Origin: Octopus vulgaris
Taxonomy: Eukaryota
DNA length: 64,000 nucleotides
NCBI GenBank assembly: GCA_951406725.2
Contig: OX597831.1
Coordinates: 74,586,001 to 74,650,000, forward strand
Direction of reading: 5' to 3'
The notes under the pieces were generated by a model that made no database searches, was not told the origin of the DNA, and saw only the letters and a program-made list of their open reading frames with translations. The translations under genes were made by a program, and so were the position numbers. Below, piece by piece: positions 2,155 through 60,995 of this stretch (position 1 is the stretch's first letter; every line of letters starts with the position of its first letter).

Positions 2155-2190
2155 CTTTCTGATGAAGAGCGTAGGCTCGAAACGTAAAAG
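2155..2190 (+). ncRNA. Minimal type I hammerhead ribozyme motif
   Basis: CTTT-CTGATGA-A-GAGC(GTAG)GCTC-GAAAC-GTA-AAAG: helix I CTTT/AAAG, helix II GAGC/GCTC, loop-less palindromic helix III ACGT, GUA cleavage triplet. Confidence 0.75.
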
Positions 2191-3245
2191 ACTTTCTCAC
2201 CTTCCCGAGCGTTAAACTAATACACCTGTTCGTTGTTTATACATCTGTCTTCGTCTTTTGTTTTTGTTTTTGCAAATTGCAACTATATATATAATATTAA
2301 ATATATATATATAATATATATATATATATATATATATATATATATATATATATATATATATATACATATATATATAATATGTAGAAGTAAGATCCAAAGA
2401 TCCACGTGTAGGAAGTGAGTAAGCTTCGAGCAGTCCGTAGAAGGTATAAAAAAAAAAAAAACACTTTCAGGAAGAATAGTGATTTACTGACTTAGAATGT
2501 TGTAGGTTTTCCCCGTATCGAAGTACGATAAGGTGAAAAAAGTTGATTTTCTAGTTCACGGTTAGCAAATAAGAATTGAAATCGGGGAAATGGAACAGGC
2601 AAAATCCAGGTTAAATATGCTTCCTAGTTAGCAGAACTTGGGAAGTAATAAGAATAAGTGAAGGAGGGGCACTCCCCGAGTTACTCATCGGGCCGAAGAT
2701 ACTTTAGTCAAATGAAGTTCACACTGTCAAGTTAACTCGCAGGAGATTTGATCGGAAATTAGTGGAAAGCATGGAGAGAGAGAGAAGAAAAGAAAAGAAA
2801 AATATATGAATGAAGAAATAAGATATGGGAGTGGGCTAATGAGTAAAGTTGTTAAGAATAAGAATAAAGAAAAGGAGAGGGGGAGAGTGAGGGGAAATCC
2901 CGATCAGATTGAAGTCTATCTATCTATCTATCTATCTATCTATCTATCTATCTATCTATCTATTTATCTATCTATCCATCTATATGGTATTTTGTCCTTA
3001 CCAGTCTCATATTATGTTTACGTATTTTTCACTGGTTGGTGATGTCCTGTACTTGATGTATTTTATATATATATATATATATATATATATATATATATAT
3101 ATATATATATATATATATATATATATATATATATATATATATATATTATATATATATATATATATATATATATATATATATATATATATATATATATATA
3201 TATATATATATATATATATATATATATATATATATATATATATAT

Positions 3246-3555
3246 GGGTACACAGCGACACAATTTCTTTTCCTCAACAGGCCCTGCCCTATTTAACATT
3301 GTCCCAAAACTGATCAAAGAGGAAAAACATCCCATCACCTTTAAACAGAATCTGGATAAATTTCTTTAAGCAGTACCAGTTAAGCCACCTCTACCTGCAT
3401 ACAACTCACTCAACTAGAGGTCCCTACTCGAACGGACCATGAAACCACAAAACTTGACTTAAAAAGGACATAGATAATGCCATCAGGTGGTGCTATTAAG
3501 TTAGACATGGCCTGGACCAATCTTTGGTCGAAACATATCTAAATTTTATCTAAGT
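3246..3555 (+). mobile_element. CR1-like LINE 3' fragment
   Basis: GPALFNIVP...[12 protein letters not shown] motif and the same 3' UTR as 1-720. Confidence 0.7.
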
Positions 3556-3689
3556 TTTATAAATATGTTTATATGTAAATATATATATATATATATATAT
3601 ATATATATATATATATATATATATATATATATATATATATATATATATATGTGTGTGTGTGTGTGTGTATATATATGTATATATATGTC

Positions 3690-3888
3690 TGTACCGTTGG
3701 CGATTTTTTGTCCTCTGTCTTCCCTTCTCTGGATCTTTCCTTCTCCTATGTTTCCGACGAAGAGCTCCGCTCGAAACGTTAAACCCTCCTTCTTTCCTTC
3801 TCTCCTGAGCGACCAATAATACTATATTTGTTCCACGTCCTCGCGTTGTTGTGTTTTTCTGTGCTTTCTTGTTTGGATTTTTTAACTA
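3690..3888 (+). mobile_element. Short non-coding HHR-bearing repeat (family Z) between (TA)n tracts; HHR variant at 3750-3784
   Basis: GTTT-CCGACGA-A-GAGC(TCC)GCTC-GAAAC-GTT-AAAC. Near-identical reverse copy at 55025-55230 and a partial one at about 60280-60340. Confidence 0.75.
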
Positions 3889-4309
3889 TATATATATATA
3901 TATATATATATATATATATATGTGTGTGTGTATGTATGTATGTATGTATGTATGTATGTATGTATGTATGTATGTATGTATGTATGTATGTATGCATGTT
4001 TGTATGTATAGGCGTGTGTTTGTATATGTGTATGTGTATATACAGGTTACATCAGAAAGGCAGCCATTACCGCGATGCTTGTAAAGTGAGACAGGGGGTA
4101 ATGTGAGACCGGGCGACTAATGTCTCCTTTCCTTTCTCTTTTTTCTTTTATTTTCTTTTTTATTTTCATTTACTCTCATGGTATTTAAACTGGTTTACAC
4201 CGTACTTTTGCTATTGGCAAAATTTCGCAATAAAAGTGAAATGGTTTAGTCACTAAAACTGGGTCAGACCCCCACCACCACCACCATCACCACCACCACC
4301 ACCACTTTT

Positions 4310-4580
4310 GTCATGAATGACCACGGGATTGCACTTAGAAAGTTCCCCTCCGAGGCACAAGTCCGGGCAAAGCTGTTTATGGAAGACCAGCAGTCACCCA
4401 TGCATACCAGCAGTCACCCATGCATACCAGCTTCCACTCGTTATGCCACCGATGTTATCCAAGGGAAAGGTAAAAGGGGCCGATGCAGCTTGGCACCAGT
4501 GACGTCACAACTCATTTCTACAGCTGAGTGAACTGGAGCAACGTGAAATAAAGGCAGGAATTTCGTTTAAGAACACGACA
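4310..4580 (-). mobile_element. SINE family C (3' part)
   Basis: Reverse complement of the family C body, with an internal duplication ACCAGCAGTCACCCATGCAT. Confidence 0.8.
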
Positions 4581-57707: not shown

Positions 57708-58298
57708 TCAAGAACAATCTTACTTAGAAATGGATGCGCGCGTTCCGTCATATAATAAATAAAACATATGCATATATACATACATATATGTAGGTACCTA
57801 CCTCTACATGTATATATACATGCATATATGGGTACAGGACACCAAAAAAAACTTAGAACACAATGAGAAACGAAAACATAAACACAAAACCAAGGAAATG
57901 GACATTTTTCTTAAACAACGAAAAAATAGAGTACAGGACAAATAACACAAGGAAAATTCCCCTTCTTCAGTCGCCATGGTTTCATCTACTCTGCGTTTCC
58001 ACCTTTGAAACGCAGAGTAGATGAAACCATGGCGACTGAAGAAGGGGAATTTTCCTTGTGTTATTTGTCCTGTACTCTATTTTTTCGTTGTTTAAGAAAA
58101 ATGTCCATTTCCTTGGTTTTGTGTTTATGTTTTCGTTTCTCATTGTGTTCTAAGTTTTTTGGTGTCCTGTACCCATATATGCATGTATATATACATGTAG
58201 AGGTAGGTACCTACATATATGTATGTATATATGCATATGTTTTATTTATTATATGACGGAGCGCACGCATCCATTTCTAAGTAAGATTGTTCTTGATA
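57708..58298. repeat. Near-perfect palindrome of family X, arms about 292 bp, 7-nt spacer CACCTTT at 58000-58006
   Basis: Arms are reverse complements with only a couple of visible mismatches; (TA)n on both outer sides. Confidence 0.95.
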
Positions 58299-58589
58299 TA
58301 TATATATATATATATATATATATATATATATATGTGTGTGTGTGTGTGTGTGTGTGTGTGTGTATAAATTTAAATTAAATAAGTATTATTACCATTATTA
58401 ATAATATTAATAATGATAATAATAAGGCGGCTAGTAACTTTACACCTTTACAAGTAAAATATATACTAAACATTGGCCGTGTATATTTTAATAGTGAGTA
58501 ATTGGTGGTTTTGGAGCGATGGGTTTGATATAGCAAATGGTATTTAAATACCCCATTAAATATGAATTTAGTTTATATATATATAATTT

Positions 58590-59040
58590 AGGCGCAGGAG
58601 TGGCTGTGTGGTAAGTATCTTGCTTACCAACCACATGGTTCCGGGTTCAGTCCTAGTGCGTGGCACCTTGGGCAAGTGTCTTCTACTATAGTCTCGGGCC
58701 GACCAAAGCCTTCTGAGTGGATTTGGTAGGCGGAAACTGAAAGAAGCCCGTCGTATATATGTATATATATATATATATATATATATATATATGTGTGTGT
58801 GTGTGTGTGTGTGTGTTTGTGTGTGTTTGTGTGTCTGTATTTGTCCCCCTAGCATTGCTTGACAACCGATGCTGGTGTGTCTATGTCCCCGTCACTTAGC
58901 GGTTCGGCAAAAAGAGACCGATAGAATAAGTACTGGGCTTACGAAGAATAAGTCCCGGGGTCGAGTTACTCGATTAAAGGCTGTGCTCCTGCATGGCCGC
59001 GGTCAAATGACTGAAACAAGTAAAAAGTAAAAGAGTAAAA
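58590..59040 (+). mobile_element. SINE family A (full length)
   Basis: GGCGCAGGAGTGGCTGTGTGGTAAG head to GTAAAAGAGTAAAA tail. Confidence 0.9.
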
Positions 59041-59611
59041 AAAAATAATATATATATAATATAATAATAAAATAATGAATATATATAATATAATATGAAA
59101 TATATATATGTGTGTGTGTATGTGTGTGCGTTTGTGGGCCCTTGGCGATTTTTCCTTCTCCTTTGGACTTTGCTCAAAAGGTCAAACTCTCACCTTTCAC
59201 CAAGCGTCAAACTAACATATTTCTTGTTCGTTTTTTTTTGTCCTTTTATTCACTTTTTGAACTGTTTGTTTATTGAATTGACTATATATATATATATATA
59301 TATATATATATATATATATATATATATATATATATATATATATATATATATATATATATATATATATATATATATATATATATATATATATATATATATA
59401 TATATATATATATATATATATATATATATATATATATATATATATATATATATATATATATATATTGTCCGATTTGCATCTACAATTTTTAGTATAAGCA
59501 AATGACCGAAAAACGATGAGCTAACCTCAGGCTGAATCGAACACACAAATCGACGTTTGCATGGCTCCTTGCAAATCCGATTGGTCAAACGCTCACACTT
59601 TAAACTGTCTA

Positions 59612-59795
59612 ATATTATATATAATATTTTTATAAACAAACCCGAAAGGCTTTGTATGTTACGGTGAGAAAGCTACTATGGAAGACTCATATCATCACAA
59701 TATATTATTATTCAGTTATTATTATACTGTGTCTTCTGTAGTAGGTTTCTCTCCGTAACTTACAAAACCTTCCGGGTTTGTTTATAAAATATTAT
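59612..59795. repeat. Imperfect inverted repeat, arms about 65 bp
   Basis: TTTTATAAACAAACCCGAAAGGCTTTGTATGTTACGGTGAGAAAGCTACTATGGAAGAC / GTCTTCTGTAGTAGGTTTCTCTCCGTAACTTACAAAACCTTCCGGGTTTGTTTATAAAA. Confidence 0.85.
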
Positions 59796-60721
59796 TTGTA
59801 GTATATATATATATATATATATGCTCAGAGCTTAGTTTTTCCTTGGGGCTGGCCGGATCGGAGCGATATCAGGATTAATCAGCCGAAATTGCTAAGATGA
59901 TCCGGTTCCTGACTGAAGATTAGAGGCTTCGAATGACCTGTCTGTTTTTTTTTGTGTCGTCTCTTTGTGTGGTTTGCGTTCTTGTCCCCTTTAATAAAAT
60001 TTTATATATCATTTTTATACATATATTATTGCGGCGTAACGTACCCCTTTCTCCTACGTATATATATATATATATATATATATATATATATATATATATA
60101 TATATATATATATATATATATATATATATATATATATATATATATATGTATGTATGTATGTATGTATGTATGTATGTATGTATGTATGTATGTATATATG
60201 CGTATATATATATATATATATATATATATATATATATATATATATATATATATATATATATATATATATATACATATATCGTTAATCCAAGCATGAAAAT
60301 ACAAAGAGAAAACAACAACTCGAGGACGTGGAACAAGTATATACGACGGGTTTCTTCGCATGTTGCGTTTGCCAAATCCACTTACAAGGTACTGCTCAAC
60401 CCGATGCTATTGCAGGAGGCACTTGCCCAAGGTGCCAGCTGCAGTGGGGCTGAGTTTGAAGCCACAAGGTTAGGAAGCAAGCTTCGTAACCATACACTCA
60501 TGCCTGAGGCTTTTATTGTTTTATTTAAGTTGAAATCTTTGCCGTCGGCTGCTTCATTCATGATTCAAAAATATGTTGAAACTTATTTAACTTATTAATA
60601 AATAAAAACTCAGGAAACTCCTCTATCGATGTTTAGATTGATAATAATAATAATAATAATAATAATAATAATAATAATAATAATAATAATAATAATAATA
60701 ATAATAATAATAATACGTTTA

Positions 60722-60995
60722 TATATTTGTTGTGCAAGATTTTTTATGTGAAGTCGTGTGTTGAAATAGAAATACAAAATGGCTGACGGTTAGTAAGGAG
60801 AGACACAAATAAGAAAGAAGAAAACAAAGGACCACTGATGCGGTCACAGGAGTGTGACGAAAGAACTCTGGCCGAAATAAGATTAAGATTAATGTAAAAA
60901 ATAAATAACACTAAAGCAAAATAACGCCAAATATATAGTGCGTGTGTCTTTATTGGCTAAACTGGCAATATGACCATTCCGAAATATAACAATAT
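60722..60995. mobile_element. Family P copy with internal inversion; HHR-like motif at 60830-60873 (+)
   Basis: 60722-60768 matches 19790-19835 directly; 60769-60995 matches the following P segment in reverse. Confidence 0.8.

Follow-up and report, generated by a model that had tools for sequence, protein, structure and literature searches.

Penelope-Like Element Ends and a Predicted Permuted Hammerhead Motif in the Repeats of Octopus vulgaris

The DNA analyzed here is a 64,000-nt stretch of the Octopus vulgaris genome (GCA_951406725.2, contig OX597831.1, positions 74,586,001 to 74,650,000), referred to below as the window, and the subject is the hammerhead ribozyme motifs that its repeats carry. 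Families A to H bear type I hammerheads, which a first-pass annotation had assigned to retroelements devoid of open reading frames (ORFs); families J, I, K, L, M and N bear a permuted motif, in which GAAA precedes CUGANGA. Taken jointly, we consider it probable that most of the listed type I hammerheads represent 3' ends of Penelope-like elements (PLEs) truncated on their 5' side, and that the permuted core likely cuts RNA and likely spreads through borrowed PLE proteins. The activity of the permuted hammerhead, taken on its own, is a real possibility that stops just short of being expected.

Permuted Hammerhead Motif

Repeats with GAAA before CUGANGA were located in the window at 1570, 19577, 24114, 55412 and 59913, and family I as a whole keeps the GAAA about 30 nt before CUGAUGA. 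The first scan for permuted motifs followed the block orders of PMC10085705 and required only helices I and III (statements on this paper, and on PMC4209133, PMC8557442, PMC7229834 and 10.64898/2026.07.22.740005, refer to the parts of these sources that were compared). The type-SGC scan gave three matches in the window (1570, 19577, and 59913) against none in 30 shuffles, and 101 matches in 1.98 Mb of DNA, belonging to families J, I, K, L, M, and N. The order of the motif is 5'-[II]-[b]-[III]-UH-[I]-1 to 5 nt-[II']-GAAA-[III']-[b']-[I']-CUGANGA-3', and its representatives in the window are the following:

977..1675, + strand: family J copy lacking the 5' part of its ORF-less 830-nt unit; permuted motif 1504-1576 (helix II 5' strand 1504-1509; U16.1/H17 1524/1525; GAAA 1542-1545; CUGAAGA 1570-1576)
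19330..19715, + strand: family L copy, approximate ends; permuted motif 19506-19583, core 19577, helix II decayed
23610..23870, + strand: truncated K/M-like permuted-hammerhead remnant, approximate ends, assigned by eye
23963..24347, + strand: family K copy; permuted motif 24044-24120, core 24114, helix III decayed
25180..25355, + strand: K-like permuted-hammerhead repeat, truncated just before GAAA, assigned by eye
55262..55665, - strand: family I copy, ORF-less terminally redundant unit; decayed permuted motif, core 55412
59821..60000, + strand: second family J copy; permuted motif 59847-59919

Like the type-SGC hammerheads of PMC10085705 (Eckert et al. 2023), the octopus motif has helices I and III, the blocks in the sequence cleavage site, GAAA, CUGANGA, full conservation of the core, a short linker between helices I and II (1-5 nt here) and an extra helix, b, joining the other sides of helices I and II. 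It differs in the position of helix II: the 5' strand of this helix follows CUGANGA in the published type and lies upstream, together with the strand of the extra helix, in the octopus families. Not one of 84 copies could pair the strand before GAAA with the strand after CUGANGA through at least four Watson-Crick pairs with at most two inserted bases (0/84). An upstream helix II of at least five Watson-Crick pairs was found instead in 16/21 copies of J, 11/28 of I, 12/25 of L, 3/4 of K and 3/3 of M (N, 0/2; K2, 0/1), compared to 0-10% after shuffling of the upstream region. The strand of helix b comes directly after the upstream strand of helix II, and this helix was formed in 15/21 copies of J, 15/28 of I, 18/25 of L, 3/4 of K and 2/3 of M, against 13-29% in shuffled sequence.

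The helices differ in sequence and still pair. The pairs of helix II read GGCUG/CAGCC, GGCCU/AGGCC, GAGCA/UGCUC, GAAGG/CCUUC, and GACAC/GUGUC by family, always opening with G10.1-C11.1, and even the two J copies of the window (core 1570 and 59913) differ by a compensatory change from A-U to G-C in helix I. Across families, G10.1-C11.1, U16.1, GAAA and CUGANGA are kept, and the helix positions show two to four Watson-Crick types; the 208/209 paired cells in this comparison arise by construction, the informative part being the two to four pair types per position. A descriptor of all four helices returned 76 matches (29 distinct) in the 1.98 Mb and none in shuffled or reversed sequence. It also returned none in 119 metagenome stretches of the same block order (of about 660) and none in an arbitrary genome sample of 390 kb, in which BLAST saw four decayed copies. 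Twenty J/N/I-type copies outside the picks of the descriptor were compared over helices I, II, and III, helix b being omitted as its register shifts between J and I. In these copies 93% of the cells were paired (84% for helix II alone; 18-45% in slid controls) and 9/16 pairs showed double changes, a result reached by 0/500 shuffles. The four helices thus covary across five octopus families and in a 3' untranslated region (UTR) of Naiad, a PLE clade with a reverse transcriptase (RT) that is discussed below.

The motif is therefore predicted to be a pseudoknotted type-SGC hammerhead whose last segment has moved to the front, with the RNA entering at G10.1 and leaving after A9. Such an order is ruled out in PMC10085705 by the assumption that the block of CUGANGA and helix II is unbroken. 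In K and M, a site resembling a splice acceptor (pyrimidine-CAG) lies exactly before G10.1.

ORF-less Units Carrying the Permuted Motif

The unit of family J is 830 nt long and ORF-less, with 93 aa as its longest ATG frame, and an array of eight units was found at G000:C6:85.540-85.546 Mb. The family is young, as the top 40 copies are 99-100% identical to one another and 213 exact 47-mers were counted. Family K occurs as a tandem dimer of an ORF-less 816-nt unit, and family I, also ORF-less, shows terminal redundancy at 578-785 nt in 10/30 loci. Searches of the genome gave 1490 candidates for J, 3228 for L and 2507 for K. Short stretches at 70-80% are shared between J and I, J and L, and K and L. 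Compared with non-LTR retrozymes, J has the same tandem, ORF-less units, and has neither a type I hammerhead nor a highly paired monomer. Compared with Naiad, J, I, and K are without the ORF of N-terminal GIY-YIG and C-terminal RT, the RNA fold being the only thing in common.

The units of J (L476), I (L392), and K (L533) contain the word GTAAGT, resembling a 5' splice site, shortly after the unit junction. The pseudo-long terminal repeats (pLTRs) of PLEs are known to hold an intron, and the word is as expected of it. Separately, a young RT family at G000:C12:16,775,347 and about 20 other places has open frames of up to 782 codons; it is 31% identical to a piece of the Naiad RT and is a candidate active partner for J.

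Link to Naiad

Naiads were described as lacking a canonical hammerhead, with eight "half cores" whose second half was placed 35-50 nt to either side (PMC8557442, Craig et al. 2021). Six of these eight consensus ends were inspected, by eye rather than by descriptor. Among them, Naiad_Ovul carries the whole four-helix motif with other helix sequences, as does the end of the published Naiad_Obim consensus, likewise judged by eye; in the Euprymna Naiad (Esco) helices I, III and b fit and helix II does not. Nbra-3, Hpol and Smim have the ordinary order, and Dst-3 allowed no clear assignment.

In the octopus genome, 244 exact copies of the Naiad-type motif were counted. Six loci with Naiad-type RT were found and five were fetched; the motif is contiguous with the RT in 2/5 and decayed in a third. 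Fourteen probes upstream of Naiad-type motif copies met no ORF at the expected distance, and no Naiad RT was seen in the first 1.98 Mb of DNA scanned. The Naiad-type RTs are all broken and therefore cannot move J today. The permuted motif may, as modeled here, explain why the Naiad clade seemed to be without a hammerhead, and descent of the J/I/K-type motif from Naiad ends would fit the common fold. An active hammerhead in cephalopod Naiads and thousands of ORF-less tandem partners, with its pseudoknotted core joined to the remaining RNA at A9/G10.1, would add a seventh topology to the six permutations so far considered possible; for this prospect our expectation is nearly, not fully, even.

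Type I Hammerheads of the Window

A type I descriptor was applied that tolerated at most one core mismatch and a bulge of 0-2 nt before helix II; an earlier version without this bulge had returned one site only. Nine of the 13 sites listed in the first-pass annotation passed, with C3 at +2159, +3754, +24971, -30464, +48762, -51962, -55155, -55457, and +60835. Five of them have an intact CUGANGA (2159, 30464, 48762, 51962, and 55457), and the changed cores are CCGACGA (3754 and 55155) and CUGAUGC (24971 and 60835). The four others (14609, about 24532, 30672, and 30985) failed, each being a decayed copy of a multicopy family. The type I reading given for 55426 applies to just 1/30 copies of family I, a family that carries the permuted motif instead; the look-alike at 55457 is private to the copy in the window.

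Seven matches in the window scored at least 8, the one at 6870 being a microsatellite artefact; 2 x 40 dinucleotide shuffles gave 0.2 on average and no more than 1-2. Intact-core matches numbered five, against 0.15-0.18 in shuffles. The excess over shuffled sequence that the annotation had anticipated is thus real. The density it had singled out is nevertheless the normal one for this 2.8-Gb genome: 39 arbitrary 10-kb stretches gave 32 matches scoring at least 8, that is 5.3 per 64 kb (7/32 coming from one array), with 1-3 in shuffles. A rough extrapolation from these 390 kb leads to 1.5-2 x 10^5 type I motifs per genome. Rfam did not recognize the sites: no hammerhead family was present among the 150 listed matches of the window, nor among all 27 for positions 1400-2300, the scans being dominated by microsatellite microRNA matches. 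Likewise, no window site was found among the six genome matches of Hammerhead_1 (RF00163), for which 73 of about 263,000 candidates were scored. Descriptors for type II, type III, CSG, and GCS hammerheads gave 0-1 matches each. The flanks of the loci contain at least 10 further type I families with long helix II loops, none matching a window site (L023, L024, L033, L041, L067, L304, L319, L333, and L337 are among the loci that hold them).

The type I hammerheads and PLE remnants of the window are:

2095..2284, + strand: family A stub from the 3' UTR of a Neptune-type PLE; type I hammerhead of the minimal kind, core 2159
3690..3887, + strand: family B stub; type I, CCGACGA core 3754; parent ORF not found
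14583..14715, + strand: family F stub, old; decayed type I, core 14609; Hydra-like endonuclease upstream in 2/30 loci
19793..19988, - strand: inverted 5'-truncated family C pLTR, in head-to-head fusion with a PLE ORF remnant
19990..21430, + strand: family C RT and GIY-YIG ORF, 5'-truncated and frameshifted
24371..25179: head-to-head pair of family C pLTR stubs (24371-24708, - strand; 24790-25179, + strand); CUGAUGC at about 24532 and at 24971
25600..25990, - strand: end of a GIY-YIG frame and 3' UTR; U3-A8 minimal hammerhead
30393..30743: two family D stubs (Hydra-like PLE 3' end) arranged head to head; core intact at 30464 (- strand), G8A at 30672 (+ strand)
30960..31180, + strand: old family E stub with a long loop on helix II; core 30985; no parent ORF found
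34590..34700, - strand: second E-like copy, missing from the first-pass list; core 34687, approximate ends
41740..42260, + strand: decayed remnant of a Hydra-like endonuclease with a GAAA-palindrome half motif behind it at 42221, assigned by eye
48640..48905, + strand: family G stub from the 3' end of a Hydra-like PLE; type I core 48762, intact
51680..52015, - strand: family H stub, Hydra-like PLE 3' end of the long-tail kind; best type I hammerhead, core 51962
55027..55240, - strand: second family B stub, core 55155
60765..60995, + strand: family C pLTR stub, CUGAUGC core 60835

Among the half-motifs proposed earlier, that at 25668 proved to be a whole hammerhead, a U3-A8 variant on the minus strand, which lies behind the endonuclease end at 25860 in an arrangement common to five other loci. 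The half-motif at 42221 lies behind an endonuclease-like remnant seen by eye. Those at 14270 and 57265 found no confirmation, and the DNA compared contained no relatives of either. Of the proposed coding remnants, 19991 corresponds to RT and GIY-YIG and 25860 to the end of a GIY-YIG domain. The remnant at 41740 was recognized by eye only and was not picked up by the profiles used. Long-tail copies of family H have a second, degenerate hammerhead-like motif (51680-51770 in the window, minus strand) about 190 nt downstream of the first.

Type I Families as Ends of Penelope-Like Elements

In families A, C, D, F, G, and H, six of the eight with type I motifs, the sequence continues upstream into a GIY-YIG frame, which bears out the proposed link of the listed hammerheads to PLEs. 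The clearest case is family C. In loci L142 and L143 a frame of 1312 codons with RT and GIY-YIG is flanked by the motif on both sides in direct orientation, a truncated copy standing inverted upstream, and positions 19793-21430 of the window repeat this anatomy. Family C is thus the pLTR of an autonomous element. Among named sequences, the nearest relative of the retroelement protein of the window is labelled Octopus vulgaris (97%). An endonuclease upstream on the same strand was found in 6/30 loci of C, 5/30 of D, 8/30 of H, 8/30 of the longer copies of G, 2/30 of F and 1/20 of A (and in two A loci fetched for other reasons); in D the link from endonuclease to motif is continuous over 1.3-1.5 kb in four loci. 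Upstream of family B, CA-rich sequence extends for more than 1.2 kb. Other PLE clades lay beyond the reach of a profile made from 52 homologues of the family C protein, and a Hydra-like profile absorbed a non-coding stretch of family H, about 20 such rows being dropped before counting. Neptune-like and Hydra-like are labels of convenience, which we presume from motif resemblance and a Hydra alignment rather than from a tree.

The copies have fixed 3' ends followed by (TA)n and variable 5' truncation; two classes of 3' end occur in C and H. Inverted partners were found in 5/30 loci of C, 10/30 of D, 5/30 of F, 5/30 of G, 11/30 of H, 2/25 of B, 2/30 of E, and 0/20 of A, so that head-to-head partners occur in 0-37% of loci across the type I families. 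No arrays were seen in any of the eight families, with 0-3 second copies on the same strand per 20-30 loci. Helix III is short and palindromic in the type I families; that of family C has 1 bp and is non-palindromic. Search candidates numbered 2968 for A, 315 for B, 1054 for D, 113 for E, 383 for F, 1992 for G, 2099 for H, and 336 for the permuted family I, each listed site belonging to one of these large families or to C, and an exact-pattern count gave 1480 CUGAUGC 36-mers of family C in the genome.

The GIY-YIG frames refute the reading of A, C, D, F, G, and H as ORF-less retrozymes, and with six of eight families reaching such frames and no arrays, the placement of the listed motifs in ORF-less elements was mostly wrong. 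ORF-less ribozyme retroelements do occur in this genome, in the form of an unlisted 359-nt retrozyme and of the units of J, I, and K; they are simply not the listed families. Two apparent associations were set aside. Two D copies 3.3 kb apart on C8, considered as a full element, turned out to be a tandem segment duplication, and the endonucleases beside family I in L277, L386, and L393 were treated as neighbours, in L277 because its upstream region is absent from other I copies.

Catalytic cores are not uniformly kept. They are intact in 29/30 copies of D, 20/30 of G, and 27/30 of H. Most A copies have CUGUUGA (intact core in 2/20), B has CCGACGA (0/25), and C has CUGAUGC even beside intact ORFs, with an intact core in none of the ORF-adjacent copies shown. 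Three type I families have therefore spread with a changed catalytic core. These fixed changes agree with PMC11167929, where ribozyme mutants did not prevent PLE insertion in vitro; cleavage there needed protein, the tail arose from two internal start sites, and RNA ends at the ribozyme site were not found.

A Tandem 359-nt Retrozyme Outside the Window

A tandem, ORF-less unit of 359 nt with a canonical type I hammerhead was met in an arbitrary stretch at G000:C1:20,002,097-20,004,768 (L318). It has 37 exact cores at 17 loci, all of which were examined; at least two cores on the same strand are present in 9/17, and the longest ATG frame is 30 aa. The circular monomer is highly self-paired (z -4.5, 64% paired), and the family thus has the tandem, ORF-less, and highly paired form of non-LTR retrozymes together with their canonical type I hammerhead. 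In all inverted insertions (8/8), a short end at unit position 208-211 is combined with a long one at 253-258, which is the PLE tail. Four loci join the unit head-to-head to the family C ORF; they represent one event, because both flanks are common to all four. This single fusion is suggestive, and is not proof, that the family C protein moves the retrozyme. Scars and fusion give more direct support for mobilisation by PLE proteins than was available in the papers compared, since PMC7229834 and 10.64898/2026.07.22.740005 argue from co-occurrence and homology and the 359-nt family shows insertion scars directly. The window itself retains a 29-nt trace of the 3' tail:

47936..47964, - strand: 3' tail trace of the 359-nt tandem retrozyme

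Immediately to the right of the window there is also a degenerate copy (L147:5439-5737).

Proposed Mechanism and Alternatives

Published biochemistry suggests that the PLE protein would nick AT-rich DNA or (TA)n and that the cDNA would start at one of two internal sites just downstream of the ribozyme. Reverse transcription would mostly stop after a few hundred bases, and ribozyme-bearing stubs would pile up; a second cDNA on the other strand would produce inverted head-to-head pairs. Cleavage is probably dispensable for insertion. ORF-less units keeping the protein-binding end would be copied in trans. The permuted core likely cuts after UH (window position 1525 in J), and cutting would trim tandem transcripts to unit-length RNA.

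Several points weigh against the permuted motif as an active ribozyme spread by PLE proteins and against the PLE origin of all type I families. The break between A9 and G10.1 touches a metal-binding site of the known hammerhead core. The covariation counts cannot be taken as independent, since the families are interrelated; K, L, and M could also form a contiguous, if weak, helix II (a bulge followed by G-C and G-U), and nested minimum-energy folds of J and L lack the pseudoknots, which the program cannot form. Of the permuted families with L and M among them, J, I, and K are those with demonstrated ORF-less units, and the J monomer folded as a circle is not rod-like (z +0.65, 40% paired). No intact Naiad was found, although J is very young, the longest frame being 292 aa among matches of at least 34% identity; apart from the fold, J, I, K, and L have no sequence in common with the 3' region of Naiad. 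Type I families B and E had no linked ORF within 1.5 kb (0/55 B loci and 0/30 E loci). In PMC10085705, at most one or two inserted bases are assumed at A9/G10.1. Self-cleavage by the permuted motif, finally, is a prediction.

The permuted fold could be conserved for a non-catalytic role, such as binding of the PLE protein, marking the RT start or ending the transcript, and no longer cut. The three type I families with changed cores, the in vitro insertions and missing RNA ends of PMC11167929, and the fact that 8/9 tested dimers of Xenopus retrozymes remained uncleaved all speak for this. We nevertheless find it unlikely, since Naiad and five octopus families keep all bases of the catalytic core and differ in the sequence of each helix, and the triplets at the site (AUC, AUA, GUC, GUU, and GUA) all conform to NUH.

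It is more doubtful still that these are ordinary type-SGC ribozymes, with helix II taken from the strand after A9 and the upstream strand forming a competing, switch-like off-helix. K, L, and M do keep a bulged base followed by G-C, G-U, and G-U/G-C pairs after A9, and J has a 4-bp partner 5 nt after A9 in 17/21 copies. However, a helix of four Watson-Crick pairs with at most two inserted bases failed in every one of the 84 copies of any family, and J and I are unable to pair at 10.1-11.1 in the usual register. The upstream strand, for its part, pairs by Watson-Crick throughout, has G as its first base in all cases and stands directly before helix b.

Improbable, in our judgment, is a motif working only as a domain-swapped dimer, in which the S and G blocks come from one unit and the upstream strand of helix II and CUGANGA from the other. 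Minimal PLE hammerheads work likewise, J and K occur in tandem, and helix b meets the far ends of helices I and II, which the known structure places at a distance from helix III; type SGC presents this puzzle too. Helix III of the permuted motif, on the other hand, has 4-5 bp and is non-palindromic, so that a partner is not needed, and the internal loop between III and b could let the monomer fold back. The last alternative, that the listed type I families are ORF-less retrozymes making small circular RNAs, would suit B and E and the true tandem retrozyme present elsewhere in the genome, and is very improbable given the GIY-YIG frames, the variable 5' ends, and the lack of arrays.

Relation to Known Systems

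The type I finding is already known in kind. The arrangement as 5'-truncated PLE ends was described in 2014 by Cervera and De la Pena (PMC4209133), and the octopus families resemble the pLTR hammerheads of that work in the many families per genome, mostly as single truncated copies, in the opposite-strand pairs (there 100-700 bp apart), and in the bulge before helix II, the palindromic helix III and the U3-A8 variant. They differ in number, with 2,000-9,000 motifs there under another descriptor against about 1.5-2 x 10^5 extrapolated here, and in the family-wide A6U, U4C, and A9C cores. An octopus hammerhead of the Hydra clade had already been catalogued. The type I motifs are in this sense ordinary and confirm the 2014 picture in one more animal.

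The permuted families stand further apart. The supplement constructs of PMC10085705 come from IMG/M contigs and one bacterial RefSeq record, in contrast to the high-copy animal retroelements of the octopus. With the Naiads of PMC8557442 they have in common the four-helix motif at the ends of RT copies and the (TA)n targets, J, I, and K differing in the missing ORF and in a 3' region similar to that of Naiad in its fold only. With the non-LTR retrozymes of PMC7229834 and 10.64898/2026.07.22.740005, the 359-nt unit shares all its main traits (tandem, ORF-less, highly paired, canonical type I) and J and K share the tandem, ORF-less form, whereas J, I, and K are longer and carry the permuted motif, and J is not rod-like. 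No report of the permuted order was found by title or abstract in the literature on type-SGC and non-circularly permuted hammerheads, on Naiad hammerheads and on octopus ribozymes, subscription papers lying outside this scope. The word "Octopus" is absent from the text file of the PMC10085705 supplement, a statement that does not extend to its alignment files and figures.

If the prediction is true, CUGANGA can be separated from its helix II strand, and the descriptors and Rfam models in use miss such motifs. Naiads would then have their missing ribozyme, and amplification of a non-circularly permuted ribozyme would be seen for the first time in an animal genome. The motif offers a testable answer to the apparent absence of hammerheads in Naiads, and the permuted families provide several natural covarying constructs of 70-80 nt for cleavage tests.

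Other Features of the Window

A frame of 424 codons at 11137-12411 (+) has a weak NHL-repeat match (E 0.012) and is possibly a host exon. At 21864-23330 (+), 488 codons form a C-terminal piece of a non-LTR retrotransposon ORF with a weak zf-RVT match, unrelated to PLEs, and a Tc1/mariner transposase fragment (HTH_Tnp_Tc3_2, E 2e-8) lies at 32039-32425 (+). Recent segmental duplicates were observed at G000:C28:6.93, 8.29, and 8.36 Mb and at C2:59.07 Mb, with 95-99.9% identity over several kb.

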